Positions 8,628 through 64,000 of a DNA stretch of 64,000 bases are shown here, piece by piece. Source of the stretch: Marsupella aquatica (Eukaryota > Plantae > Marchantiophyta). A model generated the notes under the pieces. The model saw only the letters and a program-made list of their open reading frames with translations. It was not told where the DNA came from and did not search any database. Where the stretch lies: positions 5,273,241-5,337,240 of the forward strand of contig OZ316899.1 of NCBI GenBank assembly GCA_973895155.1, in the 5' to 3' direction. The translations under genes and the position numbers were made by a program. Each line of letters opens with the position of its first letter. The first letter of the stretch is position 1.

Positions 8628-8914
8628 ATGGTGGAAGTAGTCAAGGTCCTTTGCACAGTCGTCAATGGTCCACCCTCATTCAGGATGCTTCTCAGGAGAA
8701 ATGGCCAACTCGGACGGACCAGGTTTGTCACGACACTGTGAGTCCCCGAGCGGTGGTATAGTCATCTGGCTAAGCGGCTGCTCCGGTCTGCCAGGATCAA
8801 TGAAACTAATGACAACTAACGAGCATCAGAGAGAAATGTATGCTTTCCACCTCTTGCCCCGGTTCAAATGTTGCCTAATGCAACTAGCAACTGCGGGATG
8901 ATTGTATAAACATG

Positions 8915-11800: not shown

Positions 11801-12165
11801 AGTGGTGGACCTAGCCACCAACGCCCTCACCAATCCTAGCACTCATGCCTAAGTGCCCCTGGTGCCTGAACGCCTCCAAGGAATACCTTGAGCAAGCACC
11901 CTAGTGCCCTTGCACCACCAGCAGCCCCTCCCATACAAAGCCGCACTTGCTCTCCAACACGACCGCTACTCAACGGTCCTCACTGTCTGCACAAGCAACC
12001 AAGCACCTCGGTAAGTAACCCTTTAGGATCTAGAACTCGCCAAGTCTAGCATCCTAACTCAAGCTCAACAGACATTGGTAAATAGGTCAGCGATAGGTCC
12101 TCCCGATGCCATAAGCCGGAACCAGAACCCACGCCCACTGTTCATCCAGGACAACTCCTTCCTAG
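11801..12165. mobile_element. Truncated copy of the AGT...ACT-ended LTR family
   Basis: Starts AGTGGTGGACC and is colinear with 43294-43670 and with 49952-50103/54182-54317. Ends abruptly against gypsy RT. Confidence 0.85.
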
Positions 12166-21700: not shown

Positions 21701-22760
21701 GTCATCTTCCTCTCGACCAATTGGATGCCTGCATATGGATTATTACGAGTAGGCCGGTGCAACGGATTTCTCACCACATCATATGTTACTACCTCTGGCA
21801 ACACTGGTGCAAAAGACTGGCTTCTTGCATATCGGCAAAGTAATTGCAGATGGTACCCTAGTCTGGATACCGCTCCTTCCCCAATGCTCTGCTTCTCTCA
21901 TTTAATGCTTTCTTCAACTGCATTAAGAGATAGCTATTGTAGTCTCGGCTTGCATCGATATTCTCCACCAAAAACACCTGGGCTTTGCCGATTTCTGCTC
22001 TCGGCAAGGTACAATGCAATGTGACTCTCAGGAAATCAATCAGCTGCCCTATATGCGGGTTGGTACATTGATTCCTGAAAAACCCATTCTTAGTGGAAGG
22101 CCCTAGAAATGACCTAAACTGGTCATCCGGCAACGTCTTCCTCTGCTCCACCCAAGTCTTCCTTCCTGTTGGTAAAGCAAAGACGGCTTTGATAAGCGCA
22201 GGTGTTAGTTCGAACACCTTTCCATACAGCAACGTTGTGTTGGGAGAAGCCTCCCAGCATCCCACGAAGTCCAACAGATCCTCATCTGGTATGTCTACCA
22301 TCCTCCAGGACAACCTAACAAAGCCCTCCAACCCAGTGTTCATTCATATATCCTGCATATTTATTATCCTGAACGGCACTGAAGACCTCATCCTCATCTC
22401 TGGCGAACTGTAATTGTAAATCGGCAGGTAACCTGTTCGCCCACCCTGTCATGGTTTTATCCTCTACAGCCCGATCTCTAACTGGCCCGGCTTCTGTCTT
22501 GATTGGTCTCTCTGACCTAGTTCACTTTGTCGGAGTTGCGGATGCCCAACTTCCCTTGCGCTTCATCTCTTCAGCGCTTGAATACTCCCCAATAATAGCT
22601 TCCTTTGTCCACTTTGCAGTGTGACCCTTCAATTCCCAAAGTGGCTGCCCTACGTTCTTGATTTCCTCCCTAATCCCCACAACCTTATTCTCCCAAATCA
22701 GCAATTTGTCAAGCTCCGCACTGGTGGGTGTCCACAAGAACCCGCCGAAAACCAGCCGGA
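18795..22760 (-). mobile_element. 5' LTR of the gypsy element (>=3.9 kb; its 5' end is not seen), containing a gene
   Basis: CA end at 18795 next to the PBS. Homologous to 22765-25265, which ends at the same ...CCACA. Confidence 0.7.
19717..22737 (-). pseudogene. LTR-embedded gene: PMD/Transposase_32-like domain plus long coiled coil, with several stops
   Basis: ORF pieces 22737-22522, 22343-21858 (GLEGFVRLSW..LIKAVFALPTG..KNGF), 21594-21250, 20949-20674 and 20661-19717 (heptad-rich). Confidence 0.75.
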
Positions 22761-22764
22761 ACGA

Positions 22765-24375
22765 GTGATCCAGTTGCTGTGGCGGTTAATTGACATACCA
22801 AACAAAGATCTATTAGACTTTGTAGGATGCTGGGAGGCTTCTTCTAACACGACGCTGATGTATGGGAAGGTGGTGGAATTAATGCCAGCACTAATTGAAG
22901 CCGTCTTTGCTCTTCCACAAGGGAATAAAACTAAGGTGAAGCAACAAAAGACATTGTCGGATAACCAATTCCGATCATTTCCAGGGCCCTCTACTAAGAA
23001 TGGGTTCTTTAGAAATCAATGCACTAATCCACATGTGGGGCAGTTGATTGATTTCTTAAGAGTCACGCTACACTGTACATTGCCGAGAGCAGAGATTGGC
23101 AAGGCCAGGTATTTTTGGTGGAGAATATCGATTCAAGCCGAGACTACAACGGCTATCTCTTAATGCAGTTGAAGAAAGCATTAAATGAAGAGAAGCAGAG
23201 CATTGGGGAAGGAGCGGTATCCAGACTAGGGTACCATGTGCAATTACTTTGCCGAACAACCAATTGGAAAATTGGACAACCAGCAGCTCAAGGAAAAATT
23301 GACGAAGGTACAGCTGGAGTTAGCCAATTCAAAGGAAGAAGTACAGGGTCTAAATCGGCAAGTCGAGAGGCTCAGAAAGACGGCTAAGGACCAGGCCACC
23401 CAGAGCGAGAAGGCCTTGGCTGAAGCCCAAAGGAAGTATGACAAGCTACTCGACCGGTTGGAGGCCATGCGGGAGAAGCATGAGGACACAATTTGTACAA
23501 CAGCCAATGATCACCTAAGCCGAGTCCAACAGATACGTAAGGAGCTTCAGGAGGAGATAACCAAGACAAAGCAGGCATGGACGGATGAGGTCACGAAGCT
23601 GGAAACCATCAACAATTCCCAGAGAGCCGCTCTGGATAAGAAGGAGTTTGAGATCGTACAGATCTTAAACGAGGAACTAAAGACGGCCAAGGATGAGGCG
23701 CATCGGCTTAACAAGGAAGTTGAGGACTTATCTCAGGAGCTGGAGGAGGCCAAGGACAAGATGATCGGGTTGCAGAGGCGGGCAGATATTCAAACGGAGA
23801 AATTACAAAAGTATGCCAAAGCAAGACGTGGATCACCGACTGGACGGTCTCCTGCTAGTGGCGTGGTAGCCGAGAATACTGACATGCCAAAACCGACATC
23901 AATATTGTCAAGGGTAACTGAGGGTAAGGCAATGCAGTTGGTTGTGGATCTGGCCAAGACATTCATTGGGCCAGCAGGTACTTATGGGGTGCCTCTCAAG
24001 GCCACTCCAAAAGAGGTCAAAAGTATGGTTGCTCACATTTGTGGGACTATTTCTACAAAGACAGTCGTAGTTGAGATAAGTAATGCCGATGAACTTGGAG
24101 CTGCAGTAACAGGTTCAGACACAGGTACTGCTACCATGGACTACCGGAATGTGAAGCGGTGGAAGATTGAGACAGAACGTATCGGAGAGCAGGCTTGGAT
24201 GGAGGAAGTGAAGGCCAACGCTATCCAAGCCGTTTCCCAGGAGGATGCTGCCAATGCCAAGGCCGAGGCTGTTAAACCAGGACCCGAAGCCGGGGAAGCC
24301 GAAGGGATCAAGCCGGAGCCAATTGCAGGAGGAGGTGCAGAGTTGGAAGATTCGGACTTACCGCCGGTCATCTGA
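22765..24375 (+). pseudogene. Paralog of the LTR-embedded gene (5'-truncated, frameshifted, middle deleted)
   Basis: DIPNKDLLDFVGCWEAS..KNGFFRNQCTNPH joined to a 379-aa coiled-coil ORF ending DLPPVI (GLPSVI in the left copy). Confidence 0.8.
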
Positions 24376-25265
24376 CAATTAAGGAGGGCCAGTCGTCGGT
24401 TGGAAGGAGGATGTGGCGGTAGGAGAAGGGCTTGGGTCAGAAGGGCACGACCGTTGGAGGATGGGACAGGGCAAGTAGCGCCTTGTCGGCTTAGGTAGTA
24501 TTAGGTGTTCGGTTCCTGCAGGGTTTTGGGTTAGTCAAGTTGTGTTTAGTGATTGTTAATTAGCAGGTTTATTGCGGTGGAAGGCCGTGATTTGTGGTTT
24601 TGATTTCCGCCAATTCCCTTGGATGCGCTGCAAGGATAAAAACCTGGGCAGCGTGGCTTGAGGGGCTTTTCTCTAGTCAAGACTCTAGTGTAAATCAGTA
24701 TTACTAGCATAGGAAGCTCTCGGCTACATCTAGACCGCGGATTATCAGTAAACCACAAGTTCCCATGGATTTTTGTGCAATTGTTTGAATTGAGTTGGCC
24801 TTGTTGCCTAGTTTGCAGATTCTTGCCAATCATGGTGTTGTGTGTTATGATATTTGTTGCTTGATCGATTTGAGTCAGTTAGAGTGATACTGTGAGCTAA
24901 TACGATTGCATTGTCTTGATTGAAGACTGCCAAACCAATCTCTAAGAGAAAGGTGAGGATTGAGAGTGTTTTGTTGGTTAAAGTGTGGGTTGAGTCAGTC
25001 TGAGAAAAACCTTCATCCAGCTTAAGAGATTAAGCCGTAGGGGTATATTCTGGGGCGGGATACAAACATACCCGACGAAGTCAATTAAGGAATTAGGCGT
25101 CTCAGCAATACACAATTCACAAGCCCAGTGAAAGAATCGGTCCAGCATAGTGTGGATTGAAGAAGTAGACCGCGTTTCCAAGCCGAATAGTAGCCAAACC
25201 ACCATAAGCCGACCATAAGTAGTGGTTCATAGTCGGTTGCGGATGGTGTTGGGAAATGCACCACA
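22765..25265 (+). mobile_element. Second, inverted and internally deleted copy of the gene-bearing LTR
   Basis: Reverse-complement homology to 18795-22330. Ends GGGAAATGCACCACA versus GGAAAACGCGCCACA in the left copy. No PBS follows. Confidence 0.8.
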
Positions 25266-29687: not shown

Positions 29688-31458
29688 TTCAAACCACATG
29701 TTAATTTGAGCCTAAACTTTCAAGAGTGATTCTACTATGTAAGGGCTACCTCCTGAAAAAGTATAAGACTTTTCTAATTACTTAAACTATTTAGCTAAAA
29801 TTGCATCGATCCACTAATCTTAACTAATGGTAAACTCAATTTTGTTGAAGTAGAGCCTTAGAACCTAGTTGTCAACAAATGTTTTCAAGCTTGAGGATCT
29901 CTGGCTGGCTCTTAAAGTATTCTGAATGACCTTTGGTATCTCTCTTTGTTGCAAATGAGCCACCAATGTTGGGGTAGTGCTTCAATGCGTCCTCCGTTGT
30001 AAACATTCTCCATAATCATCATGTCATTGTCCAAACTAAATCTCACAATCCCAAGTGTCGAGTGTAACTCCTTCAACGCGTTTACCCATAATTACTTTCA
30101 AGGTGTGAAGACATAAACACATACAAACATAGAGCTTGCTCTAAATGTCACTCGAACACTCTTAAATATAACTCCCAAAAATATTTCTAGTTTTCTAATT
30201 TGCTATCCTATTACATCATTGAAGTCAAGTCAACTATGTGTATGTGTATCATAGGTTCTATAAAGTCTTTACCCTACCATTTCCTTCATGTAAACCCAGA
30301 GTGTATGTTGTGCACTTGTGTATGCTGGTTGTGACATTGCATTCTCGTATGCGGGCTGGCAAGGCTGGGCCAGGTGCAATACTCCTTGACACACAAGGTA
30401 CGGGTTGGGGGTAGCGGCCGCGAGTTCGGGTTGTCAGACGCATTTTGGACTCCGAATCAAAGGCAGACCACCACAACGGCTTAGAAGTCCCTAAGTTGAG
30501 ACTGATCAAGGAATCAAACGCGAGTATGTTTCGGTGGAAAGATATAAAAAATATACCTAAAGGGTATATACCTATAGATAGGCACAATTAGCACTAGTCC
30601 ACATTAATAAATGTGTATTGCAGTCTCTCCTTGCCCGAACCCTCAATACTAACAAAGTTTATGTTCCATTTGGTAGTAAATGCACTTAGTGACCAACTTA
30701 TTGGTGTGACACTGTCATGATTGGACCAAAGCCACAAATGTGCAAATCCTCTTGGGCTTGATCCCCACCACTAAGTCTACACATAATTATAATGTGATCT
30801 CAGGCATACCACTGTTGGCTTTGCACCCCTAATGCTTAATATGTTACCTACTCCTATTCTAAGTGCCACAAATTACTCAACTCCCTTTGTTTGCTAATAA
30901 TTGTGCAGGTTTGATGGCTTCTTACTCTGTACAACCTCTACATACAAGCATATTACACTCTAAGGGACGTGCCGCTCACGTCACAAATTAATAATCTGTT
31001 GAAAATTCTCAGATTCTCTAGGAAACCTTTTAAATTAAAGGTCAGGCAGTTGGCTTCCCCTCATCAGTCCCTTATAACATGTTGTGATTTTCAATGTGAT
31101 ACTTATGCCGATATTTTACTGACGGAGCTGTGAGAACTAGGGTTTGGGGTTTTTGGGTGTTCCGGAGGGTGAGGCGTTCAATCTTTGTGGATTGTGTTAT
31201 GTTTGTGATGATTATCAAGATAATGGCAAGGATAATGACGACTTTGAATGGATTTGACCATCAGAATGATGGTCCACGGACAAGCTATCTAAACTTTGCT
31301 TACTCTGACGCGCATGAAAGCTGAAGCTGTAGCTTCAAGCTTTTTTTCCAAAGATTCTAACATCTGAATGACGGGAATGTATCTGGGAGCAGACAAGAAG
31401 TCCGACCGTGCTTGTGCCGTGGGCTGAATCTCTGGGTAGGGCAAAATTGCGTCACAGT

Positions 31459-43293: not shown

Positions 43294-44786
43294 AATGGTG
43301 GACCTCGCCACCAGCGCCCTCACCAATCCCAGCACTTGCGCCTAAGTGCCCTTGGTGCCCGAATGCCTCCACGGAATACCTCGAGCAAGCATCCAAGTGC
43401 CTCTAGCACCTCCTGCGGCCACTCCCATACAAAACCGCACTTGCTCACCTACACGACCGCTACTCAACGGTCCTCACTGTCTGCACAAACAACCAAGCAA
43501 CTCAATAAGTAACCCCTTCGGATCTAGAACTCGCCCAGTCCAGCATCCTAACTCAAGCTCAATAGACGTTGGTAAATAGGTCAGCGATAGGTCCTCCCGA
43601 TGCCATAAGCCGGAACCAGAACCCACGCCCACTGTCCGTCCAGGACAGCTCCTTCCTTGGGCGCGGCCCAGGTTCCCCCTCATACCTATCCATCACCAAC
43701 TGACCGCCCTAACCCCAAGACATGCTCGTGGCCCAATTAGTGTAGCTGGTCCTAAAGCTTGTCCCAAGCTTGTCTCAACACGCCGGGACCAGAACGGCCT
43801 CGACTCTAACAACCGCTCCCGATTCGCCCCACTGATGGTCTAGGGACCGAGCGCCCTTGGGACTCAGCCTCCATACCTACTTGGCCTTGCCTCCCCAATG
43901 CAAGCTCCCTAGTGAGGCTGAACGTGGCTTGGCTACTATTCGGCAGGATTTGGCAAACGGACGAGCTAACACCCACAAACCACGAGAACCCATGGCACCC
44001 CCGGACCCATCTGAGATCAGGAGGGCGTAGCCCTCCTCAAGAGATTTCCAACGCACCCAAGAAGTCCTCCAACGGACTTCCCGTTGGGAAGATATCGCCA
44101 TTTCCGTTTGGCGGTTTCCCTTAGTGTCGCGACCGCCGTGGCTCACGACTTCGGCTTGGCCTTTGCCCCCAGGGAGACATCACTCCTCTCATATATGCTT
44201 CTAGAGACCTGACACCCCCGGACCAACTTTGGTCCCTAAACGTTTGGCCCCCAACCCGGATCCCATCGCGCATAATGGGCGCGCCACCAACTGGCAACGC
44301 CCATAACTTTCTTGATAGGCATCCGCAAGCGGAGTGCCTTAGTGCGTTGTGACCGGGCCAACCCAGTGCTCATGCCTAGGCCCTCAGGTCTGATTACCGC
44401 TCGGGACCCCCGACCGGCCCAACCCGGATCGGGCCACAACTTGCGCCCCAAGCGTCCGTTGCCAATGGCATCAACTCCATTGGCCTTGGGCCCAAGCGGA
44501 GCTCACTCCCAAGCCCTCAGAACTCAAAGCCCATCCGACGGTCCGGACGGCCATCCTTGAGCCCGGCCCATTTGCCCTTGACCCGACCAGCCATAGGCTA
44601 GTCCAAGTCCTTAGTGTGTGTCCCCAGCTTGGCCCCTTGCCTCGCTAGTGCCACGTCTCATTGCCCACAAGTCTCCCCGTGCTAAGTCCTCCTCGGATGG
44701 CCTATCCGGGCCTGGACCATAAGGGAGCTCGGCGTCGGACTCAGCAACGCCGGAGCTAAGTGTTAAGGTAGTCGAGTTCCGCGACT
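43294..44786. mobile_element. Solo-LTR-like element (1493 bp) with A(G/A)T...ACT ends
   Basis: Perfect 5-bp TSD ATGCC (43289-43293 and 44787-44791). Removal restores LINE DVLGILGQ. Confidence 0.88.
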
Positions 44787-47700: not shown

Positions 47701-48408
47701 AAAGGCAGAATGATGCACTTTACAGGTGCAAGTTCTGATCAAAGATAGAGGACTGGCTAAAGTAGTAAATTTCAGCACTCCACCGGCATCCCAAGTTCTC
47801 ACTAATGATGGAAATCAGATAGCGTTCAAGAAGAAAGATCTCACCTCCCTGCCAGAAGCTCCCCCTGATGATGATCCCAGGTGCACACCCAAGTGCCGTG
47901 TATGCCAGGGATAAGTCAGCACTTCAATCGAAAGCAGGTGACCCTCCAAACCAGAAGCTTATTTTAGCAGATTCCCTAAACCAGTCGTTGGTACCAAGAT
48001 TAGATTACTCCACACATAGCTTCTTTCACAACGCCCAGATGCTTCATCCGCATAAGCCTTTTTCACTCCCTTGACCACAACCACCAGCCACCTTAGGGTT
48101 GACCAAAACCGCGGCCATGGGCCAAGCACAGGGCCCTATTCCTGCGGAAAAGTCCTCCGGATACCAAAAACTCACAAAAAAAAGCCCGGTTGATAGTAGA
48201 AACACCTCCGTCTAGGAGATAAGCAAGATTAGTACCTTTAAATCATCCAGTCCTTCAGAAAACCCCAACAAAGATCCACACTCTAGTGCTTGTCAGCTCC
48301 GTCAGTACTCCGCTTCAGCTCCCACTAAATCAGAGACCTTACTTACGCCTAGCCAGGAAGTTGAGAGCAAGAGCGGAGTGGAGTGGGTATTAGAGAGAGC
48401 CTGTAGAC

Positions 48409-49951
48409 TTGCAGGAAGCGATCATACAACAAAAAATACTTTTAAGAGAAGGAAAGCGAGTCAAATCACAGGAAGGAAACGATGAAGAAGAATCAAATGG
48501 TATGGATGAGAAACTATTAACGAGTAACAAGGAGAAACAGAAGGTGGAGGAATTGGAACCAGAGGCTGAGATAGACGACTTGATCGAAGGAGAAAATGTA
48601 GATGCGGAGATTGTGGCAGTCAGCAAAGACACACCACCCAACGTCAAAACAACGATTTCCAAGAAGTTAGGGTTGAGGCAAGCCAAAACGATTAAGGGTA
48701 AAGTGTGGAGTCAAGTAATCAAATCAGAGGAAGAGGAAACTGAAGAGGAATCTATAGAGGAAGAAGAGGAGTTGGTTGCAAAGTGTGGAAACAAAAAGCA
48801 AGTAAAGAAAGATCGCAACACGGGGAAGCATGTACTCAAGTTCAAAGGGATGGAACCACACATACTGGAGAACATGAGGAGCAATAGTCATAAACAGTTC
48901 TTGAGGAATCAAGGACTCGAAGAGTTTGTATATTTGGAATGGGCAACGACCACCGATCTGGAATCAAAAGAACGCTGCGAGAACTATTCAAGTTGCCAAC
49001 CAGAGGAGCCGAAATCAAGAAAAGGATCAGGAAAACATGGCAGCCGGCTTCGTTTCCCCAACACAAAGAAGTAGATGATACCAGAGGCTACCAGATGCGA
49101 CAGTGCACCGATGATAAGATCAAGGAAAGATTAGAGTTTGTGACTCATGCTTTACACTGGAAGCGCCCAAGGTCGGATCCACGGTTCATGATAAAGATCG
49201 TGGAGGAGGGCGATGGTAAATAGAAGAATTGGGTGTCATTTTTCCATGAGGGCTTTCATTCAACACTTAAACGAGCGAAGAAACTTATCGTGCAACCAGA
49301 AGCTATCTACCAGCAAAAATCGAGTCACATTTTCAGGTTCTAATCGGGGAGCAGTTAAAGAGGACGACCACACGAGTACAAAGGAGTAAACCTCAGCTAA
49401 TGATGGAGAAACCAGGCACAACTGATGATCAAAAGTGCAAGAGTGCAGCTACAGAAGAGGAAACAACCAAGGGAGGAGGAGGATCCCAAATGAAGCAGCC
49501 TGGGAACGGGAAGAAGCGAATCATTGAAGCAGCCAAACATAAATCAACGGAGGAAAACCAAGGGGAGAAGGAAGAAACCTGGGATAAATTCTTCAGTGAT
49601 AGAAACCGGAGAGTAAAAAGTGCAAACTTGGACATAAGCAGTTCTGAGGCCATAGATGATACCGACATTAGATACGCCATAGAAACTTGCTCCACGCCTG
49701 AGGTACAGACGGTACAAAGTGTAATTGGGATTGAGAAGCTGAGAGAAGAGATCAAAAACATTAGAAGAAGCAGCATCTTCACCACCATGACAGGACAGAT
49801 CATTTGGCAGGTAGCAATCTACCAAGGGATGAGCAACGCACTGGACCAACATTTCTGGAACGATAGAGAACAGGAATTCATTGCAGCAAATGCAAAAGCA
49901 GAAGAGCTAGAGAAGAAAACATCAGAGAATCAGCAGATTATGGAGAAGCTG
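48409..49951 (+). pseudogene. K/E-rich region plus PMD/Transposase_32-like domain and coiled coil; fragment, probably from another gypsy-associated cassette
   Basis: FLRNQGLEEFVYLEW..ELFKLPTRG..RGYQMRQC..RLEFVTHALHW. Cut on the right by the AGT-LTR at 49952. Confidence 0.65.
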
Positions 49952-50454
49952 AGTGGTGGACCTTGCCACCTAGCGCCCTCACCAATCCCAGCACTCACGC
50001 CTAAGTGCCCTTGGTGCCCGAACTCCTCCACAGAATACCTGGAGCAAGTAACCTAGTGCCCCTTGCACCGCCAGCGGCCCCTCCCATATGAAGCCGCACT
50101 TGCTGTGACGGGTACCCCGTCACGGGAAGTCACACATAACTGGTTGCAAAGGCCGATACCTTGTTAATAGTCAATGTAAATAAGCCATTTTTTAATTTTT
50201 AGTTAATTCCGTCATTATAGGTTGATGATGCCCCAGGTGACTTTATATTCTTTCTCTCATAATAGTTCTAAGATTTGCGGCGACCTAAGTGGGCAAATAT
50301 TTTGGGACCTTGAAACTAGCCAGGACCAGCCCCATAGGACTTACCGTTTTGCTTCAAGAGCTATTGTTGAGACCCCCATTGCAAAGTCAGGAGAGGGGGG
50401 GGTTTTTTTTTAAATAAATCCCTCCTCAGGAGGGCGAGTCCCATTAGTGGCCGT

Positions 50455-50790
50455 CCGAGAGAAAGAGGGGCTGCCTCGCGAGCCCATAGGGCTGCGTGCC
50501 CGGGCGATTAATGGGGCTCCGCGAGCTGAAGGGGCTGCCTCGCGAGCCCATAGGGCTGCGTGCCCGGGCAATTAATGAGGCTCCGCGAGCTGAAGGAGCG
50601 CAAGCGAGCGGGGGGGGGGAGTTAAAGGGCCTCCCGCGAGCTGGGAGGATCACGCGAGCGGGGGGGAGTTAAAGGGCCTCCCGCGAGCTGGGAGGATCAC
50701 GCGAGCGGGGGGGAGTTAAAGGGCCTCCCGCGAGCTGGGAGGATCACGCGAGCGGGGGGGAGTTGAAGGGCCTCCCGCGAGCCGGGAGGA
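50455..50790. repeat. GC-rich tandem repeats upstream of the LTR gene
   Basis: Two ~64-bp units (AGGGGCTGCCTCGCGAGCCCATAGGGCTGCGTGCCCGGG..) followed by about four 47-48-bp units (GCGAGCGGGGGGGAGTTAAAGGGCCTCCCGCGAGCTGGGAGGATCAC). Confidence 0.9.
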
Positions 50791-51213
50791 ATGGCCGCGC
50801 GCCCTGCATAGGGCCGCGCGCAGGAGGACGCAAGGGTAAGGCCCGAGAAATGGGCCGGGGCGCATGGCGAAGGCGCCAGGAGTTTTTTCGGTTCTATTTT
50901 TTTTTCCTTCCTTTTTCTTTCCCTCTTCCTTTTGCACGACCCTCTCATTGCCGAAAGCAAAAACGGGGTTCTTCTCTCTCTTGCCGGAAGCTCTCTCCAG
51001 ATTCTAATTATTTTTGAAGCTCTCTCTTTCATGGTGGATTAGTGGGGCTTGCTGGCGTCATTCTTCCAGGCATTAGTGGCGGCCGCACGGAGTAGTGACG
51101 GGAAATTGAGAGAATTTAAGTGATCGGGCTACGGGGGCTGTTTCGGGCCAGGGAATTGACATTGCCACGGGTGACGGGATTGGTGATTGAGAAATTGATT
51201 TCGGGATGCATGG

Positions 51214-53070
51214 ATGCTAGATCAACCAGAGTTTAGTGCGTCACGCATTCGGAGATACAAGGCTGCTTACCGTGACTACGTGGAGACTCGGATTACACGG
51301 GAAAGGGAAGAGAGAGAAGTTATGATGAGCACGGGATTGGCAGCGGGTTCCTCACCGGTGGGTAGGAAGATTTTTCGTCGAATTTATCCCAAGACCTCCA
51401 CCAAGGTGATGGAGGATTGTCGGAACATTTTCCAAGCCACCGGGCTTACAGAATTCATGAAGGTGGAGATTACCATCCCTTCAGGGAAGAGCTGGGACAT
51501 TGAGGCCGGGATGGAGTTCCGAACGGAGGGAATCTACTTTGAATGTCTCAAACGTGTAGTGCCCCATGTGGAGTTGGCTAAGCTATTGTTTCTTGAGAAT
51601 CAGAAATTCTCATTCACACCTCGGAATATCAGGGGAGAACTCACGTTGAAAATGGTGGCCACTTGGGTGACCAATCCTACCTCCACCACCGCCATCCCTC
51701 TTTCTGCTGTCAAGGATGTTGAGTATAAGGGCTTCCTGGCCAAGGTGCATCAACGGGTTCTTGGCAACGTGCAATCCGGAGTGCTGAATGAGGAGCATTT
51801 CGTGGTAGCTATGGACATCAAGAACTACCCAGCCCATGTGTACGGATGGTGGTGCTACGGATTGAAGAAGCTATTGGCCGCTGAGCCCGGGAGTGTGAAA
51901 CCAGGTGGGGCTGTACATTTGATGGGGTCATTTGTATTGGCCAGGGCAGAAGGGTTGATTGGTTCTCCGGGGCATGAAGACACGGGATCATCTCTCACCA
52001 CGGAGATCCGGAGTATTGCCACTACCGTTTTAGGGAAGCTCACGGAGGAATCATTGTCTGCTGGTGGGGAGGATAATAGAGAAGAAGAGAACCAGGAGGA
52101 TGATTGCACATTGGAGTGGCTTGAATCACTCGTGGGAGATCCGAAACAGCCTCTGGAATACAACATTCCGGATGTTTACTTGGCAGAGCTACGGGATTTC
52201 AGAGAGGGAGTCCACGAGGGACTCAAGCTAGTCCACGCATTGAGGGAGTCTCTCAAGCACGCCACAGTCAAAGTAGAGACGTTAGAGCAGAGCATCCTGT
52301 CACTGAAGGAGGTGATCAAGACCAAGGAGCAGACCATTCATGAGAAGGTCAGGCACATCAATGCAGCTCACGTAGAGATCACCAACTTGAAGGGAGCTTT
52401 GTCCACCAAGGCCAAGGAAGCAGAAGAAGTAGGAGCGTTGAGGCAAGCATTGGCCAAAGAGAAGCAAAATTCTGGAGAAGTGATGGAGTGGAGGAACCAG
52501 GTGGGAGCACTACGGAGTCAGGTGGCAGCCTTTGAGACACGAGCGAAGAGAAGTGAGGCCCTGAGTCTAGGGAAACGGAAGAGTCCCGGCACACCTGGCT
52601 CCACACTTTCCCCGGATGTGATCTCCCAAGCTATCGAGATGGTGGTGAAGGAGGTTAGTGGGAAGTATGGACCCTTGTTGGATGGAGCCAAGAAGAGTCA
52701 GGAGAAGAGTAAGAGCTTGGAGAAGAAGCTCCGGGAGGTACGGAAATCGTTACGGGAGGCTCAGGTCAGTACGGGGATGCCACCCAGGTCTGTCACCCCC
52801 GGGACTCCCATGGCCACGGGGCAAGTTCTACCGTTGGAGTTGCGGTCCGGAGAAGAGGCTACCCTCTGGAAGGACACAATTGGTGAGGGGTACATCAAGG
52901 CGTGGCAGGCCTTGGCTGCTTTGAGGAAGCGCGGGAGCAGCAGCACTAAGAGTACTCCGTCGAAGAAGAAGAAAAGTACGGTGGCACTCACTCCCGTGAG
53001 TGATGAGGAGGAGGACCACTCACGGGGCACAAGTCCGGGCACCGAGAGCGAAGAAGAAGAGGAGGATTAG
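51214..53070 (+). CDS. 618-aa LTR-encoded protein: helical transposon-associated N-terminal domain, coiled coil, basic NLS-like and acidic tail
   Basis: Uninterrupted ORF. IFQATGLTEFMKV..ELAKLLFLEN; heptad-rich region ~aa 335-515; PSKKKK; ESEEEED. Confidence 0.85.
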   Translation: MLDQPEFSASRIRRYKAAYRDYVETRITREREEREVMMSTGLAAGSSPVGRKIFRRIYPKTSTKVMEDCRNIFQATGLTEFMKVEITIPSGKSWDIEAGMEFRTEGIYFECLKRVVPHVELAKLLFLENQKFSFTPRNIRGELTLKMVATWVTNPTSTTAIPLSAVKDVEYKGFLAKVHQRVLGNVQSGVLNEEHFVVAMDIKNYPAHVYGWWCYGLKKLLAAEPGSVKPGGAVHLMGSFVLARAEGLIGSPGHEDTGSSLTTEIRSIATTVLGKLTEESLSAGGEDNREEENQEDDCTLEWLESLVGDPKQPLEYNIPDVYLAELRDFREGVHEGLKLVHALRESLKHATVKVETLEQSILSLKEVIKTKEQTIHEKVRHINAAHVEITNLKGALSTKAKEAEEVGALRQALAKEKQNSGEVMEWRNQVGALRSQVAAFETRAKRSEALSLGKRKSPGTPGSTLSPDVISQAIEMVVKEVSGKYGPLLDGAKKSQEKSKSLEKKLREVRKSLREAQVSTGMPPRSVTPGTPMATGQVLPLELRSGEEATLWKDTIGEGYIKAWQALAALRKRGSSSTKSTPSKKKKSTVALTPVSDEEEDHSRGTSPGTESEEEEED

Positions 53071-54989
53071 ATAGGCGTACGGACGTGGGTGTACGGCCTC
53101 CAGATTTCCAACATTTTAGTGGGGGGTCACTCATGGGCTTGTTGGGATGAGCTCGCGGAGCTGATTCCAACAAGAGGCGGCGCTCCTCAAACGGAGCCAG
53201 GATGAGCAAGTTATGGCCTGGAGAACTTATGTTTTTGCGGTACGGAAACGGCCATAACTCAGGCGTCTGAAGTCCGTTGAGGGAGCGACTTAGTGATTCG
53301 GAAGCAGGAAAAGAAGAGCTATCCAGGGGTGAGCTCAGGTGTGCACTTGGAAGGGCACCTAGTTTCGGCCATTTTGGGGTGCCTCTCACTTTCAGGGTTC
53401 ACGTGTACTGTTGGGGCGCCGTCGAAGGCACCGTCGGCCCCCTTGTTTTGGGTTTAGGGTTTTAGCAGCATGTGTGTGCCGCATGCTCCTCTTCAGTTTA
53501 AGGATTTCTCTTAGTGCAAGGTTTTAGCGGCGCCGCTAGGGTAGCCGCCACCGTTGTGACCCTGTGAGGGGTGCTTTGGTGTGATTTTTCAGTATTTAGG
53601 GGGATAGCCCCGAAGTAGTTAGGGGGACTCAGTGTGAAGTTAGCAAGGAGGGATAGAGTGGAGCCTGAGGAGTTTGAAAGCGTGTTCAGAGTAGTGAGGG
53701 GGAGCCATACTCATTGTCCGGAGAGGCAGGAGTTGAGTAGACGGCAGGAGGCCGGGTTACTCATGCAATGTGTATCGTTTTTCCCAAGAGATATGGATCT
53801 GTACATTTGACTTGATGGGCTTTTGTTGTGTGTTCCTTCTCCCTTTTTCGCTTTCCGAATTGTGTTCTCCCGTTCTATGATTTGAAGAAACTTGCTTGGT
53901 TTGAGTCGGCCTTGTGAGTAGGGGTGGTGACAGCACTCTTTGGGTGACTCCGAGTGAAGGTGTAGTGGGGTAGTCGGCAGGACTTGATCAAAAGCTGTGG
54001 GGTGAGGGTAGTCGGTAGACTTGATCAAAACCTACATTTCCGGGAGCGGAAACCAAAATACTCATCCTGGTGTGAAAAGAATCCAAATAGCGTCCCTCCA
54101 CGACCCCGTAATACGATACCAACGGTTTAAGCGAAGAAAAGTGCGGTTTGCACGTATTAACCGTTGGAGAGGCAAGTGACACTTGCTCTCTAACACGACC
54201 GCTACTCAACGGTCCTCCCTATTTGCACAAGCAACCAAACACCTCGGTAAGTAACCCTTCAGGATCTAGAACTCGCCAAGTCTAGCATCCTAACTCAAGC
54301 TCAACAGACGTTGGTAACACAACTACATTTTACGGCTGATTAACGGACTTTTAGAAGACGTTAATCATGATGTATATGGCCAGCGGAGGAAAGACCTCAT
54401 TCACAACGTTAATTACCACGTTTGGGGAGACGCTCTTTACCACGTCCAGAACATTAATCTTAACGTCGTACAATAGGAGGTATATGGTTTTACAACGTGT
54501 CAGACTACGTAAAATATACCCAGCGCTCGTGTTTAAGTTTACCCATAAACGTCGTGTCAGGCTACGTAATGAAACATTAACCACGTCTAGTACGTCGTAA
54601 TGTGCAATGCACTAAACGTCATTGTATTTTAGCGTCGTCCGTGGCCGGTAAATTACGACCTTTTTTGAGACGTATGGGTAAGTTGACATAGTAGGGGACG
54701 ATGTATCGTGCTCTTGTTGTGCGACGTACGTTGGCTTATGTAGGGCTCAACGATGTACTATGGTGGTTAAAGGTCTTATAAAGGAGAACGTATATAGGAG
54801 TACATACGTCCTATTACACATTGCACTGTCTGGGTGGGGTCCTTGTTAGGGTTCAGCTCACACACAATATAACCATGTGTTTTTACATATTGTAACTCGG
54901 AATGAGGTGCCACCACAAATGGGTGGCCTGAATCAAAATGGCAAAAAATATGTACATAATGCATGGAGGACCTCCAGCTACTGAAATAC

Positions 54990-58100: not shown

Positions 58101-58228
58101 GTAAGTTTTATCCTTTTGCACAACCATTTTGAGTAACTTTAACTTTTACTAGGTTGGGGTAGGTTGGCTTCTTGAGCAATGTTCATGTTTCTCGCTTTCT
58201 GAAATTTTGTTGCATACATGTGGAACAG

Positions 58229-59041
58229 ATTCTTATTGTACGGTCTCCCCCTAAGGACCACATGAGAGAGGTTGCAAGTCGAGCGCTCTCTGCACTGGTC
58301 CCCCCATCGGCACTAGATGCCACCTTACGGGCAATAGACCGTGTATTTGATAGGGTGAGGGTGGCACGGGTGCACCCTATTGAGAGGGGAGTAGTGGTCA
58401 GTACTAGACCACGGTCGTTGGAGTCTTGTCCACCTAGGATGAGGCCACCCCATTGCCCTTTTCTTGATGCATCTAGTGCCCGGGAACCGAGAGAGTTACG
58501 TGGGAGAGCCTTGGACATCATAAAGGACTCATTCCCTACCCAATTTGGGCTCCCATTGGACCTTCCAATCAGGGAACCTATCATAGTCTGGGGTCGCCCT
58601 TGGGTCCTCCTTCCCTCCACATTGGGCCCTAACGTAGGATTAGGATTATTTGCACTTATAGATATTGTGGTCCCTGATGGTTGTGAGCCCAAGGACTTGC
58701 CTCAGCTCTTTCCATTCTATGGGCCAAAGTATTCTGCACAGCGATGGCGCATCTTGTCTCGACAATGTCCAACCTTTGGTCGATATGGCATGTCTGTCAA
58801 GCTAGACCCTAGGTATGCACAGATGGATGGTTATCCACCCCACACTGGAAACTTGGCAGGTTACATCAATAGCACTGTGGGTTGTCGGCATTTAGGTTTT
58901 AGGCCAAACGCTGAGTGGCACGAGTACCATGACCAGACCCACCCTCGTTTGCCACAGGCTTGTACTCATTACATCTTGACCCATGCTAGCCGCACCATTC
59001 GAGCAGGGGAAGAGATTTTTGTAGATTATGATTGGCATTGA
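58229..59041 (+). CDS. SET-domain exon inside the CACTA element
   Basis: Acceptor CAG| at 58228, phase 0. PSTLGPNVGLGLFA..FYG..DG..GNLAGYINS..PNAEW..ASRTIRAGEEIFVDYDWH; open frame to the stop. Confidence 0.8.
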   Translation: MLIVRSPPKDHMREVASRALSALVPPSALDATLRAIDRVFDRVRVARVHPIERGVVVSTRPRSLESCPPRMRPPHCPFLDASSAREPRELRGRALDIIKDSFPTQFGLPLDLPIREPIIVWGRPWVLLPSTLGPNVGLGLFALIDIVVPDGCEPKDLPQLFPFYGPKYSAQRWRILSRQCPTFGRYGMSVKLDPRYAQMDGYPPHTGNLAGYINSTVGCRHLGFRPNAEWHEYHDQTHPRLPQACTHYILTHASRTIRAGEEIFVDYDWH

Positions 59042-59157
59042 GGATGGACATGATATATTCAGAATATATGGACCCATTGTTGCATATTGCATTAAATCAT
59101 ATTTTATTATTTGTTTGATTATAATGTTGTATTAAATAATGATTTTAACAATTGTAG

Positions 59158-59504
59158 GATGGTGCATACATTACCCCTACACCTCACCCATCCATGATGA
59201 CAATGTCAGCGCGTGACTTTCACCTACGGGCCACTCTGCACTTTTCTGATGAGGAAGATGTTGAGGGGGATAGTGACCATGAGGAGTACCATGATGCATA
59301 TGATGGAGACTTTGATGAGGACGATGGAGATGAGGGGGATGCACCCATTCTTGAAGAGGAAGCTTTTGCCCACCTTGTGGACGTTCACTTTGGACCACAT
59401 GCACCTCATGGCAAGAGGCCTACCATGGAAGTAGACCAGGAAGATTGGGACCAGTTGGAAATGGAAGCCAGAACTCCACTCTTCCTGGATTCTCCATCAT
59501 CACG
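59158..59504 (+). CDS. CACTA transposase (TnpD-like) exon: acidic tract plus EARTPLF motif
   Basis: TGTAG|GAT phase-0 acceptor and CG|gtaagt donor. The rest of the gene is displaced by the gypsy insertion in the next intron. Confidence 0.6.
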
Positions 59505-60450
59505 GTAAGTCTCATGATTGAATAGTATCATGTGTCGACCATTACTTACCACATGTCACGTCGTCGGCTGCGGCCTTAACTCAGACTTCAGCTTAGACGG
59601 GCACATCCCTCGTAAATCTGAGGGTTCGGGCAGGAAGGGAAGCACGTAATGCACCTTATTCTCGTAAACTAGCGCTAAGTACGCATACTGCTAAATACGG
59701 ACACCTCCTAGGTATGGTTTGTGTTCCGCCGCCGGAATGTACCTTAGTCGATAGCAGGATCGACCCTGGCTTAAGGGCTTCTAAGCCTTTGTGCTGTCCG
59801 CCTTCGATCCGGATTCGATGATACAGGTCCTCAACCCGTGCTTGCAACCACTTACCTGCAGGCTACACCCTGTGCACGTCTCGGGTAGTGCATTCGGCCT
59901 GGCGCTGCCACCCATATACGAGAAACCCACACACATACACGCGCACATGCATACAATCTCGATTTACACGAAGGAAAATGATGGGAAAGGATTTTACTAC
60001 AAAGGAAACATATGCGTACACTTAGTTGACCCGACAGCCCCGGAATGAACAGGTTCAAGGCCGAGGGTGCACACTACAACGGAGCCCGGCTCCGCACTCG
60101 CCCGGCGAGCTTAGTCCTACCCCCTCCCCTTGGTACTCTTTCATTCCCAGAGGTCGGGACTCCCCGCACATACCGCAGACGTCCAACTCTGCAACTAAAA
60201 ACCCCCTTTGCCTCTATCGAGGGGTGCACTAAATACTAAGGGACGAGCGACGGGGTGTCCTCTCGCCGAAGATTCGCCAACTAAGGTCCTAACTAAGCTG
60301 ACAGTCAGGCCGGAAAACGGCTGTGTCTTATTAGAAGATCCTAATCTACGCAGGCTGGACAGCATGGCAGCGCTGCTGTACCTGAGGCAGGTGCCTGTCC
60401 CAAGAGCCTGACTAAGCCAGTCCTAATCCTAATCTATTCCTACTCCGCTG

Positions 60451-62824
60451 CTAATGCCTGGCACGCTTGCCAGAGCCGCTCGAATGGGAGCGGCCATCCC
60501 GCTGCCTTCGAAGCCTGTCATTGTCCGCCTTGAGGAGCTGGACCTGGTCTAGCAGAGATTCGTTCTCTCGCCTTGTCGCGTCCGTCTCCTCTGCTGCCTC
60601 CTGACATGCCTCCTCTAGCTGCTGGGCGTCGCTCGTCAGTTTACCCGCCAGCTGGTCCTGCTTCTCGGCCTCGGTTTGGGGCCATGCCACCTCGGCCTGC
60701 AGCGTGGCTATCTCCGCCGTGTCCCGCTGGGCTCGTTCCTCGGCCTCCTCCAGGTCTTTCTGCCAGGTGACGGTTTGATTCTTCAAACTGTCAATCTGGT
60801 TCCGGAGTCGTGTAATCTCGGCCTCGTTCCCAGCTTTGGCCTGTTTGGCTAGGGCGGTAAGAGCGTGCGCCTTGCTAACAACTCATCGGCGGCTGCAACC
60901 TTGGGTCGTAGTTGCAGAAGCTCAGCCTCTTGAGCCGCAACTTCATTCTTTAGGTACACTGACTCCACCCGGTACCGCTCTATCCTCTGAAGGGCCTCTG
61001 ACTGGGCCCGACCTGCCTTTACTACGGCAACCAACTCCTGATTGAAGAAACAGGCTACCTTCCGGGCCATGAACTCCCTGGTATCCCGGGCAATTTGATG
61101 AGAGAAATCTCCCAGAAGCCCGTTCAGAAATGTACCCGGTACGAAGAGTTCCGGGTGGTCCAGGTTGTGCCTGTCCGGAGTTGGGCACGGGCAGACGTCA
61201 ACACGCGCGGGGGCCGGGGCAGTGACGTCCATCCCTGGGGACGTAACGTTGGAAGGGGCTGGAGTGTCCTCCTGCAGCAATGTCCGGTTCTCCGGAATAG
61301 CCACCGGTGGGTCTTTGGGAGACCCGGGCTCGGGTAAGACCTCCGTCGTACCGACTTCTGTACTTAGCCCGGCTTGTTGGGTCGCATCAACGGTTGCGAC
61401 AACCGACCCATCCGATACCTCCTCGGTTACGACTACAGCTACTTGTGGAGGTGGGGTGGGTGAAGCTGGCGTGTCCGCTGGACTTCGGGCCTCGGGTTGG
61501 GGCCGTCTCTCCAAGGCCGGGAAAACCCACCTAGCTGGGACCAGCTTTGTAACGTTGACACGGGGAAGGGGATGAGGCAGGTCTTCATCACGAACCCGTT
61601 GTCCACTGCTCCCTCTGAGGGAAAACTTGAAGATTGGTACTTGGCTCCCTTGCCCCCGGGAGCCCGTGATTCGACTCGATGGTCACCTTCGGGTAACCCG
61701 AAGATCATCTTGAGCCGAGTATGTTGACGCGCGTCGTCATAATTCCTGACGAACTCCGTCATGTCCTCCCCGTAGTACCTGCAAGTGTTCCAGGGGAGGG
61801 AGGCGAGGTGCTCGAATCCCTGAGTCTTCAGATACACCGCATGCTTGGGATGGAGGACGTTTTTGTGAACGTTTTCCCCCATGCGGTGCATCGTCACCTT
61901 GGCTACGGCTACCGTGGCCAACGGTAACCCGGATGCAGTGGTGGATTCCTTCCTCTTCTTCCCCCGTGACTGGCTCAGGGTAGGTGACACTTCCCCATCC
62001 TCCCGATCGGGCCTGGGTAGTGCCACTGCCGTTAGTAACGGGCCCGGGGTGGCCATGGTCACCATGTTGTCTGCCGGGGCCGCTCCTGGGGTCAGAGCAG
62101 GGGGTGGGGACGATATAGTGTCGGCCCCTTGAGCGCTTGTTCCTCTGGGCCGCCTGGTCAAGGGTGGGGTAGCCTCGTCGTCATCGCTAAGATCCACAAC
62201 GTTGATGACGGAGCGTACTTGTGCTGGCTGGGCGATCGGTGGTGGGGTTTGGCTAGGCTGCGGCTGAGGCTGAAGCTGAAGCTGAGCCTAAGGTTGAGCC
62301 TGAGGTTGAGCCTGAGGTTGCATGGGTACGGGTACGGGTTCGACTGAGTTGGTCATGTTGGTTGATGGCCGAGTTCCCATGAAGCTCTGTAGGTGCTGGT
62401 AGAAGTTCTCCGAAGCGAGTGCAGACGACCTTGTCGAACGGGTAGTGTTGGACTCGCTGTTGATGATAGCCCGAACCTGAGCAGGGATGTGGTCGAAGTG
62501 ATGTCGTTGCAAGTCGATCGTACCCGGGATATTGAAGACCTCGTCCGGAAGCCGAAGCAATGCTTCCCAGAAACCGATATATTTGTCTCCGTTGAAGAAG
62601 TACCCAGATACCTCTGCTGGTCGGTAAAGCTTGCTCTGAGACGGGTAGTCAAAGTTAAGGATGTAGTGGTGTCGTCTTGCTAGGCGGAGGGCTCGCTCGT
62701 ACTCGCGTTCGATTTCGTATCGGCACGGGTTGGCGTGTTTCAATGAGTCGGCCAAGTGCCTTCCGGTAGATAGGAACTGCATCCAGAATCGAATGGCCGA
62801 GCTGGAGAGGATCGTGTGCGACAT
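60451..62824 (-). pseudogene. LTR-embedded gene (~790 codons originally): N-terminal domain, QP repeat, PMD/Transposase_32-like domain, Pro-rich linker, coiled coil, basic end
   Basis: Pieces 62824-62288, 62197-61439 (YLKTQGFEHLASLPW..EFVRNY..MIFGLPEG..DNGF), 61514-60849 and 60786-60451 (..GKRARH). Confidence 0.75.
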
Positions 62825-62925
62825 TCAGAGGAGATAGTAGTGGCGACTTAGAGCGAACAAGAGAGCTGGGGTTGAAGCTGGCGCGTGGACTGATGGACTG
62901 GTGCACTACAAAGGGTTGGCTCCCC

Positions 62926-62932
62926 TTTTATA
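62926..62932 (-). promoter_or_regulatory. Candidate TATA box in the LTR, ~100 bp upstream of the embedded ORF
   Basis: GGTATAAAAGGGG on the minus strand. Confidence 0.5.
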
Positions 62933-63287
62933 CCTTGAGGGCTCGATCCCCCGACGTCTCCTTGACACCCATAGGCTGAACCGCTCACTCTTGTGGTGTA
63001 CCGGCCACTCCGCCAGTCTGAGTCAGCGCGTGTCAGTGGCCGCTTCTTAAGTACGTTATACGGACCCGAGGGAGGGGCCCCTCCACGCTCGTAACCCGGG
63101 TGTGCGAATAGCGACCCGCCGCCAGTCCGAACCTGAATTCCCCCTTATTGCCTAATGATGTCCTACCCATAATGATTACCTAAATACTATCGTTATGCTA
63201 ATAATAGCGGCCTAAGACACTCGTAACGCGCGTGCTAAGCGCAGTTAGACCGAATCACTCATTAACCGCCGTACTGGTGGCGTCACA

Positions 63288-63300
63288 TAGCTCCCTGCTT
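63288..63300 (-). promoter_or_regulatory. Polypurine tract
   Basis: AAGCAGGGAGCTA immediately before TGTGACG, ~80 bp after the integrase stop. Confidence 0.7.
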
Positions 63301-63380
63301 AATTGTGAAGCGTCCTCGCGAACATCACTCTCGGCGTCGTCATCTTGATGGTGGTACTTTTTTACACGATCGTAGCTGAT

Positions 63381-64000
63381 TCACGTGGGGAGTAAATCAC
63401 CGACATACGTTGCAAGCTCCAAAGATCCGTTACGGTAGATCTGATTGACAAGGAAGGGCCCTAACCACCGGGTATGAAGCTTCCCTGGAAACTGCATGTA
63501 CCTACTATCGTACAGAAGGACTAGATCGCCTGCCACGACGTCGACCCTCCGTAGTCCTTTGTCGTGCTGCTTCTTCGAAGTTGCCTGTTTCTTCACGGCG
63601 TGTCGAGCTGCTAGTAGCCGTGCTTCTTCCAAGGCTTCAATCTGATAAGCTCGGTCTGATGAACTTTCAGATTCAGGTAAGCGATCCCGAATGCTGACCC
63701 GTGGAGTGTGTACTTCAAACTCGACGGGCACCAACAAATGTTGGCCAAACACAAGAAAGTACGGGCTATGACTCGTAGTAGTTTTGTAAGCTAGATTATA
63801 CGAGTACACCGCTGCGTACAACTTATCATCCCAATCCGTTTTGTGCGCAGCTACAATTTTGTTGAGGATCTTCCCAATGATACCATTTGCTCTCTCCACC
63901 ATCCCGTTGGCTTTAGGATGATACGGGGTAGTCTTGCGGTGCTTGACTAGGTAACGCTCCGTAAGCTGGGCTACGGTATCATTGAGGAAGTGGGTTCCAC
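63381..64000 (-). CDS. Gypsy integrase, C-terminal part (non-chromovirus type)
   Basis: GTHFLN..TTPYHPKANGMVERAN..W..YN..GDLVLLYDSR..PGKLHTRWLGPF. Runs off the window. Confidence 0.95.
   Translation of the reverse strand, partial: GTHFLNDTVAQLTERYLVKHRKTTPYHPKANGMVERANGIIGKILNKIVAAHKTDWDDKLYAAVYSYNLAYKTTTSHSPYFLVFGQHLLVPVEFEVHTPRVSIRDRLPESESSSDRAYQIEALEEARLLAARHAVKKQATSKKQHDKGLRRVDVVAGDLVLLYDSRYMQFPGKLHTRWLGPFLVNQIYRNGSLELATYVGDLLPT

Follow-up and report, generated by a model that had tools for sequence, protein, structure and literature searches.

Can the long terminal repeat (LTR) of a plant retrotransposon carry a protein-coding gene? The question is raised by 64,000 nt of contig OZ316899.1 of Marsupella aquatica (Marchantiophyta), a stretch that we call the window and that is a nest of plant transposons, including long interspersed nuclear elements (LINEs), copia and gypsy pieces, and DNA-transposon-like genes. 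The window stops at position 64000 inside a Ty3/gypsy element, here element A, whose pol upstream of the integrase 3' part (reverse transcriptase, RT, and RNase H, RH) and 5' LTR lie beyond that point. What the window does hold of element A is the end of the integrase, a polypurine tract (PPT) and a 3' LTR, in which an accessory gene is found. The explanation that we prefer overall, with modest confidence, is a Ty3/gypsy 3' LTR that carries a sense accessory gene in U3, the stretch that by definition lies between the PPT and R, together with a promoter of its own and a product predicted to counter silencing.

Edges of the LTRs and position of the accessory gene

The features of element A, with one relative elsewhere in the window, are as follows.

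63381-64000, minus strand: 3' part of a Ty3/gypsy integrase (206 protein matches; rve_3 match weak), with a premature stop at 63381-63383
63288-63325, minus strand: conserved pre-PPT motif, PPT and 3-base spacer; the motif also occurs in the metagenome loci L002 and L004-L011
59554-63287, minus strand: 3' LTR of element A, 3734 bp, TGTGACG...CGTGACA, made shorter than other copies of the family by internal deletions
62925-62932, minus strand: TATAAAAG at LTR position 356, then a pyrimidine-rich stretch; likely the accessory-gene promoter, by its position
60451-62824, minus strand: accessory gene inside the LTR, broken; coiled-coil matches below cut-offs, hhalign match weak
59554-60450, minus strand: non-coding 3' block of 897 bp, which likely holds the genomic-RNA promoter, R and U5
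30204-30711, plus strand: diverged relative of the LTR A 3' end, ending in TGTGACA

As is characteristic of Ty3/gypsy elements, the integrase is the last domain of pol and is followed by a PPT and a TG...CA LTR. Among the 120 matches listed from the total of 206, the named ones are from Calypogeia fissa (59-72%), Marchantia polymorpha (49%) and Physcomitrium patens (44%). The PPT (AAGCAGGGAGCTA, 63300-63288) directly precedes the TGTGACG that starts at 63287. The earlier note on this DNA had placed an integrase stop and then a PPT ahead of the LTR, and both are present, although the stop is premature, in that aligned contigs show another letter there and the frame beyond crosses the PPT into the LTR, and the PPT is imperfect in this copy. 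The junction motif occurs once in the window and recurs before TG in nine related loci, as well as in L003 by eye. Its 20 bases (GTTCGCGRGGAC...CACA, 63325-63305, minus strand) are kept in L002 and L004-L011 even though the integrases are only about 50% alike.

The 5' edge of the LTR was examined with contigs from four sequencing runs aligned to the region of element A. On 63210-63389, loose contig ends at 63287 numbered 10, 18, 16 and 17 out of 166, 580, 310 and 315 contigs, which is the highest or near-highest contig number in each run among the rows listed. In all four runs, the loose ends behind 63287 had a median length of 55-71 letters and an agreement of 0.37-0.42. Such ends are flanks that bear no relation to one another, the pattern that 5' and solo LTRs should give, and they set the LTR 5' edge at 63287. 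LTR A therefore starts at 63287, and the gene lies behind that start. A zoomed depth profile showed no clean step at 63287; depth instead peaks at the PPT junction, to which other families probably contribute.

Summed contig depth, which does not equal copy number, was 0.5-7 thousand over the flank and 23-153 thousand over the block that follows the gene; the gene itself had 16-270 thousand and the integrase 3-68 thousand. The climb from flank to block behind 59554 supports the 3' edge. The ratio of gene to integrase depth was 3.1-4.8 in all four runs, which is a hint only, since depth is no copy number. Between the block behind the gene and the gene itself, the ratio was 0.57-0.62 in two runs and 1.4-1.5 in the other two, and the gene end shows no consistent step. 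The 3' edge at 59554 is further supported by the diverged relative, which ends in GTGACA (30711) at the same distance from a shared block as LTR A (79 versus 78 bases); the last 460 bases of the A tail align with 30204-30668 at a score of 272, compared with 83.5 for the best of 50 shuffles. The backing for this edge is less direct than that for the 5' edge.

Within LTR A, the gene runs from an ATG at 62824 (LTR position 464) to a last stop at 60451 and encodes an N-terminal domain, a low-complexity linker, the remnant of a Transposase_32-like domain (approximately 61850-61570), a coiled coil and a basic tail. The coding region of about 2.4 kb that the earlier note had described is at its position, but in this copy it falls into four pieces, with a stop near 62290 and frame changes near 61680-61570 and 60870. 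It also lacks sequence near 61715 and 61569 that other copies carry. Judged by these lesions, copy A is dead.

A second family in the window retains an open gene.

50104-54181, plus strand: solo LTR B, 4078 bp, TGTGACG...AGTGACA, with the target duplication CTTGC on both sides; inserted in a repeat
51199-53070, plus strand: intact accessory frame in LTR B, 623 codons, with a globular N-terminal part, a coiled coil and a basic/acidic tail

B is direct proof of a gene-bearing TG...CA unit. We read it as a gene-bearing solo LTR, which is the simplest reading, based on its 5-bp target-site duplication (TSD), two empty copies of its target repeat (11925-11975 and 43420-43470) and the intact frame. 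The repeat starts with TGGTGGACC at the same point in three places (11803-12166, 43296-43660 and 49952-54317), which lie within a gypsy pol, a LINE and an accessory gene. CGCGAG-rich tandem repeats occupy 50443-50790, between the start of LTR B and its gene.

A third family is represented by two copies.

18795-22790, minus strand: copy C1, with a broken accessory gene, a 922-bp block and the end ...GCGCCACA, then PBS-like (primer-binding site) TGGCGCTAGATGGAGGGGG and gag
22790-25265, plus strand: copy C2, of the same family, inverted and 5'-truncated, with the end ...GCACCACA, then a flank that is not a PBS

The two copies are 77-84% alike in gene and tail. Their LTR starts are not visible because both are cut off on the 5' side at the head-to-head junction near 22790. 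This meeting point (22775-22800), with both copies truncated within the gene, has the form of an inverted rearrangement between two similar copies. C1 is likely a 5' LTR that has lost its start. The window thus shows the gene in a 3' LTR (A), a solo LTR (B) and probably a 5' LTR (C1), in three families.

The unrelated flanks at 63287, the depth hint and the intact gene of solo LTR B together lead us to conclude, with high confidence, that the accessory gene lies inside the LTR. Weighing against this conclusion, none of the contigs from the four runs reaches from a flank into the gene, and the window does not extend to the 5' LTR of element A. The earlier note had proposed a gene inside the 3' LTR, and this claim stands, supported by unrelated flanks in four of four runs and by B as a solo LTR with a TSD. 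The coordinates that it gave for all four copies are present in the sequence, its distances from stop to LTR end match (A 897, B 1111, C1 922, C2 890), and its minus-strand order in A is borne out (TGTGACG, TATAAAAG at 356, 897 bp of non-coding sequence, CGTGACA). It had counted four gene-bearing LTRs, which holds for gene and stop distances but corresponds to only three families, C1 and C2 being one family with lost 5' ends. Its statement that three families lack obvious DNA similarity agrees with our finding of no likeness among them beyond shuffles.

Several further observations concern the surroundings of these copies. A further broken gene at 48394-49951 (plus strand) carries the same accessory domain (E 6.3e-6 at 48972-49196) and a coiled-coil end; it is cut by B's target repeat, and no LTR ends were found for it. 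A frame at 7815-8675 (minus strand), among DNA-transposon-like genes, resembles the accessory domain by eye, without detection by the profile. Inside the gag behind C1 lies a 2938-bp TGTGAG...CTGACA insertion (15523-18460, minus strand) with flanks GCGAT/GAGAT (four of five letters alike), which is probably another long, decayed solo LTR and has E/K-rich coding remnants near 17570-17330. The flank that received A (58163-59510, plus strand) is in turn a repeat in the runs; it contains a frame with a SET domain (PF00856, E 3.3e-5), which is probably cargo of a DNA transposon.

Relatives in metagenomes and the layout of L003

A metagenome scan with an integrase alignment yielded 38 loci (L-numbers), which are collapsed assemblies of repeats. 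An accessory-domain profile built from L003, L004, L006, L009 and L011 was run on 39 loci and matched nine, namely those five by construction and L005, L007, L008 and L010. The gene starts behind the PPT/TG in eight of the nine (L004-L011, where L008 is a 97% copy of L011), with the ATG at 454-769 in the four loci where it was measured. The tail of the 5' LTR, which precedes the PBS, was compared with the first 1370 bases after the 3' TG in L004 and the first 869 in L007 and is missing from both (scores 23 and 25; L004 self score 330). Both stretches run beyond the gene start, so the LTRs of these two loci include the start of the gene. The frames of B, L003, L006, L009 and L011 have stayed open over 623-853 codons while the LTR DNA diverged.

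The ninth locus counts against a uniform layout. In L003, a circular assembly, the order is integrase, PPT-like tract without TG, gene, junction motif, 990-bp LTR and PBS. Its gene lies before an LTR of about 1 kb, and the gene-in-LTR layout is thus widespread and not universal. The distance from stop to end in L003 is 1115, where the block is the whole LTR, compared with 890-1111 in the window. Similar G-rich tracts ending in GAGCTA flank the L003 gene (L003:3755-3770 and 6537-6573), and only the second has the upstream motif and TG.

In a first integrase tree, two rows (L027, L031) were frame-shifted and two others (L033, L035) formed long branches. A second tree omitted these four along with the near-duplicates L008, L025 and P0003, and took in 16 of the 38 loci; both trees hold only sequences matched in the present analysis. 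Gene-bearing elements, together with A and the Calypogeia, Marchantia and Physcomitrium proteins, were split from seven domain-less loci at 100/100. The earlier note had inferred a conserved lineage-wide architecture and called for a tree to see whether gene-bearing LTRs form one clade. The first idea fits eight of the nine domain-bearing loci but not L003. As to the second, the tree fully supports the split of domain-bearing from domain-less elements, but the separation of gene-in-LTR elements from L003 reaches only 61/88. At that value the tree does not set the gene-in-LTR elements apart as one clade, and it does not give the direction of change.

The gag-pol that follows C1 has its nearest relatives in L004 and L007 (68-69% in RT). 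L003, L004 and L007 share the PBS TGGCGCCGCTGCCGGGGA, which we take to be of the tRNA-Asp type; C1 has a different PBS, and none was seen for element A. By eye, the pol frames of L003, L004 and L007 contain neither an extra RNase H nor a chromodomain. A scan of IMG/VR returned a single weak locus, which is unrelated.

The accessory protein and its possible role

Word-based protein searches with B and with the first 461 codons of A (X at the stop) gave no matches, as did a PDB sequence search, and a HMMER search with the B protein gave 13 matches. We had already suspected a likeness to VANC before the structure search result. A model of the L006 domain from five sequences reached a pLDDT (predicted local distance difference test) of 85.5. 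Compared with 48,161 chains, it matched VANC21 bound to DNA (9lnk_A) with Z 6.5, a root-mean-square deviation of 4.7, 199 of 231 residues aligned and 13% identity, and the next chain had Z 2.1. By Atlas language-model features, the same domain scored 0.92 to Transposase_32 clusters (23 of 30 matches, 161-164 shared features), and the B protein scored 0.81-0.82 to the Transposase_32 group, which is a lead only. In a profile search of window frames, C1 (E 2.7e-3), C2 (E 1.2e-3) and the frame at 48972-49196 were detected, with a best E of 3 in the reversed control. VANC21 belongs to VANDAL21, a Mutator-like DNA transposon; VANC binds short motifs that have accumulated in the non-coding sequence of its element (PMC5735166), and it resembles MAIN/PMD (plant mobile domain) and has a coiled coil (PMC13547354, bioRxiv 2024.09.27.615353). 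Identity to it is low and the Z is modest, and its carrier is a dicot DNA transposon.

The resemblance of the relative's domain to Transposase_32 and VANC21 suggests an anti-silencing role, and we tentatively propose that the accessory protein may counter host silencing. The Transposase_32/VANC-like fold is predicted from relatives, and the link to the window's own proteins is weak. A number of results speak against both fold and role. The Z of 6.5 is below the caution line of 8 (13 for helical folds), a Foldseek search with the L006 model returned no matches, a second look included, and the modelled fold is that of L006 and not of any window protein. A matches the relatives' domain weakly (hhalign E 0.049, two motifs in the right order) and was not listed by hmmsearch, B has no match to it in the profile search or profile comparisons, and the B model (pLDDT 38.6) is too poor for a structure search. 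A Pfam scan of the accessory proteins found no Transposase_32 (PF20167), ATHILA (PF03078) or PMD, and only coiled coils below the cut-off.

Two further signals are mixed. In the non-coding LTR parts of six of ten sequences (B, L004, L006, L007, L009 and L011), 6-mers that contain CG are more frequent than in any of 60 shuffles, and an enriched motif above shuffles is absent from A, C1, C2 and L003, which again counts against the proposed role. The enriched LTR words are also frequent in the pol of several elements. Words containing CCGG in particular are strongly enriched in the LTRs of L004, L007, L009 and L011 and frequent in pol; in L007, 2053 bases contain ATCCGG 37 times, compared with a mean of 2.0 after shuffling. 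The CpG ratio in pol is 0.80-1.06 in the six gene-in-LTR loci measured, 0.97 in the A integrase, 0.47 in the gag-pol behind C1 and 0.24-0.55 in seven of eight domain-less loci. Opposed to this pattern are ratios of 0.07 in L003, whose gene is intact and whose frames are open, and 0.91 in gene-less L012. The CpG signal is weak because hosts and ages differ.

A real possibility, if short of an even chance, is that the layout is as described and that the protein does something else, namely nuclear import, a particle or chromatin-tethering role, or the role of a decaying passenger. The functions of plant accessory open reading frames (ORFs) are given as unknown in PMC7264820 and PMC11728184, a shared fold does not show function, the motif and CpG signals point both ways, and most window copies are broken. 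Against this reading stand the long frames kept open while LTR DNA diverged and the fact that the only clear structural neighbor is a DNA-bound anti-silencing factor.

Promoters, the extent of U3 and related elements

Judging from sequence landmarks, we consider it fairly probable that the gene lies in U3 and that each LTR would have two promoters, in preference to an R/U5 of 3 kb, the other of the two options in the earlier note. In L007, TATAAAAG sits 154 bases before the LTR end, and B has a PPT-like site 59 bases past its stop, at a level reached in 4 of 100 shuffles. A comparable position is known from vertebrates, where sag of mouse mammary tumor virus (MMTV) and nef of primate lentiviruses are sense coding frames in the 5' part of the LTR (PMC2664473), although those LTRs are about 1.3 kb or less and the proteins are unrelated, whereas here 600-850 codons occupy a plant LTR of 3.7-4.1 kb. 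Other observations do not favor U3. A PPT relic behind the stop exceeds shuffles in one of seven sequences (B), there being none in A, C1, C2 and L009 and those in L006 and L011 not rising above shuffles. A canonical TATA is absent from the 3' block of A, B, C1 and C2, with B lacking any, and the single canonical TATA of A stands before the gene.

The mechanism that we propose would begin with a gene that was once internal, before the PPT of a 1-kb LTR, as in L003. A switch to a PPT upstream of the gene would have drawn the gene and its promoter into U3 and hence into both LTRs, and the old LTR would persist as the 0.9-1.1-kb block behind the stop, still supplying the genomic-RNA start, R and U5. 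The first promoter, with the TATA at 356, would drive an accessory mRNA ending at the same poly(A) site. With two promoters and a shared poly(A) site, gag-pol would need neither splicing nor re-initiation. The protein may bind short family-specific motifs in its own LTR and keep them free of methylation, and each element is predicted to hold two gene copies and each solo LTR one.

It is rather improbable that a single promoter serves the LTR, with U3 limited to the first approximately 385 bases, the gene in a 3-kb R/U5 and gag-pol reached via splicing or re-initiation. This arrangement would fit the TATA distribution, since the only canonical TATA of A is at 356, L006 and L005 have theirs at 459 and 339, and the 3' blocks of A, B, C1 and C2 have none; splice donors in a long LTR have also been predicted for Diaspora (PMC1142308). 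However, it would need minus strong-stop DNA of more than 3 kb, by the known mechanics of reverse transcription, leaves unexplained why the block behind the stop matches the stop-to-end distance of L003, and conflicts with the L007 TATAAAAG near the LTR end.

Still less probable is a U3 gene without a promoter of its own, expressed as HIV nef is, through a spliced subgenomic RNA and from the 3' LTR alone, which would leave solo LTRs silent. In A and B, pyrimidine-rich stretches that terminate in AG stand ahead of the gene, no TATA box stands before the gene in B, L004, L009 or L011, and for Bagy2 of barley a 3' ORF reached by splicing is reported (PMC7264820). Set against these are, in A, TATAAAAG some 110 bases ahead of the ATG with a pyrimidine patch behind it, the TATA boxes of L005 and L006, and a non-coding leader of 450-770 bases kept in all copies.

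It is very improbable that the true LTR is only the 0.9-kb block, with the gene an internal 3' ORF, the upstream PPT/TG a decoy and C1 a tandem sharing an LTR, because this reading, which draws on the L003 layout, the abundance of LTR-sharing tandems in plants (PMC11899658), a depth behind the gene 1.4-1.5 times that over it in two of four runs and a purine run with TGTGGCG after the C2 stop, is ruled out for B by a TSD enclosing all 4078 bp and nearly so for A by the unrelated flanks that join at 63287, and is further opposed by a depth ratio of about 0.6 in the other two runs and the lack of a PPT-profile match behind the stop in A, C1 and C2.

Returning to the layout with the gene inside the LTR, the best reading of these elements is an Athila-like bryophyte Ty3/gypsy lineage. 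Resemblances to Athila are the order protease-RT-RH-integrase in relatives, with no extra RNase H or chromodomain seen, the 5-bp TSD of B and a sense accessory protein resembling Transposase_32 (PMC11728184). Athila elements have a tRNA-Asp PBS in 72% of cases (PMC6317226), the type that we tentatively assign to the PBS of L003, L004 and L007; C1 has a different PBS. No env-like ORF with a transmembrane segment was seen, and no search aimed at one was made. The chief difference is that the Athila accessory ORF lies between pol and the 3' LTR, whereas A, B and eight loci carry it inside the LTR and only L003 has it internally. Plant accessory ORFs are internal according to PMC7264820, PMC6317226, PMC11963269, PMC3485330 and PMC11728184, and the first three have them on either side of gag-pol. 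Retrosat2/RIRE3 (ORF0), Ogre and Retand/Grande combine LTRs of more than 3 kb with an extra ORF (PMC3485330), and Ogre and Retand carry PMD or Transposase_28 domains (PMC6317226), but ORF0 is described upstream of gag-pol and the Retand ORFs are antisense between pol and the 3' LTR. Phygy/Selgy elements are short, with 4-bp TSDs and a tRNA-Trp or tRNA-Ala PBS and, according to PMC6317226, without extra ORFs; we rejected membership in that group, given the 5-bp TSD of B and the extra ORF. Our literature search found no plant retrotransposon with a gene inside its LTR, where a precedent in further literature or Repbase is possible, and no anti-silencing protein encoded by an LTR retrotransposon of plants.

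LTRs count as non-coding DNA, and solo LTRs are regarded as inert remains, yet here LTRs of 3.7-4.1 kb carry a gene of 600-850 codons in several families and hosts. Gene finders will call such LTR genes host genes, and LTR finders may miss these LTRs. L003 and the gene-in-LTR elements form a natural before-and-after pair for the annexation of a gene by an LTR, and the VANC21-like fold offers a function that can be tested for accessory proteins of the Athila ORF1/Transposase_32 type, which have long lacked an explanation. A doubtful but more far-reaching reading is that a bryophyte-wide lineage moved a VANC-like anti-silencing gene into U3 by a PPT switch, such that each LTR, solo LTRs included, may form a complete unit in which promoter, protein and target motifs come together and which keeps its family unmethylated. 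If this reading were true, solo-LTR recombination, the host's usual route of removal, would leave the counter-defence gene behind.

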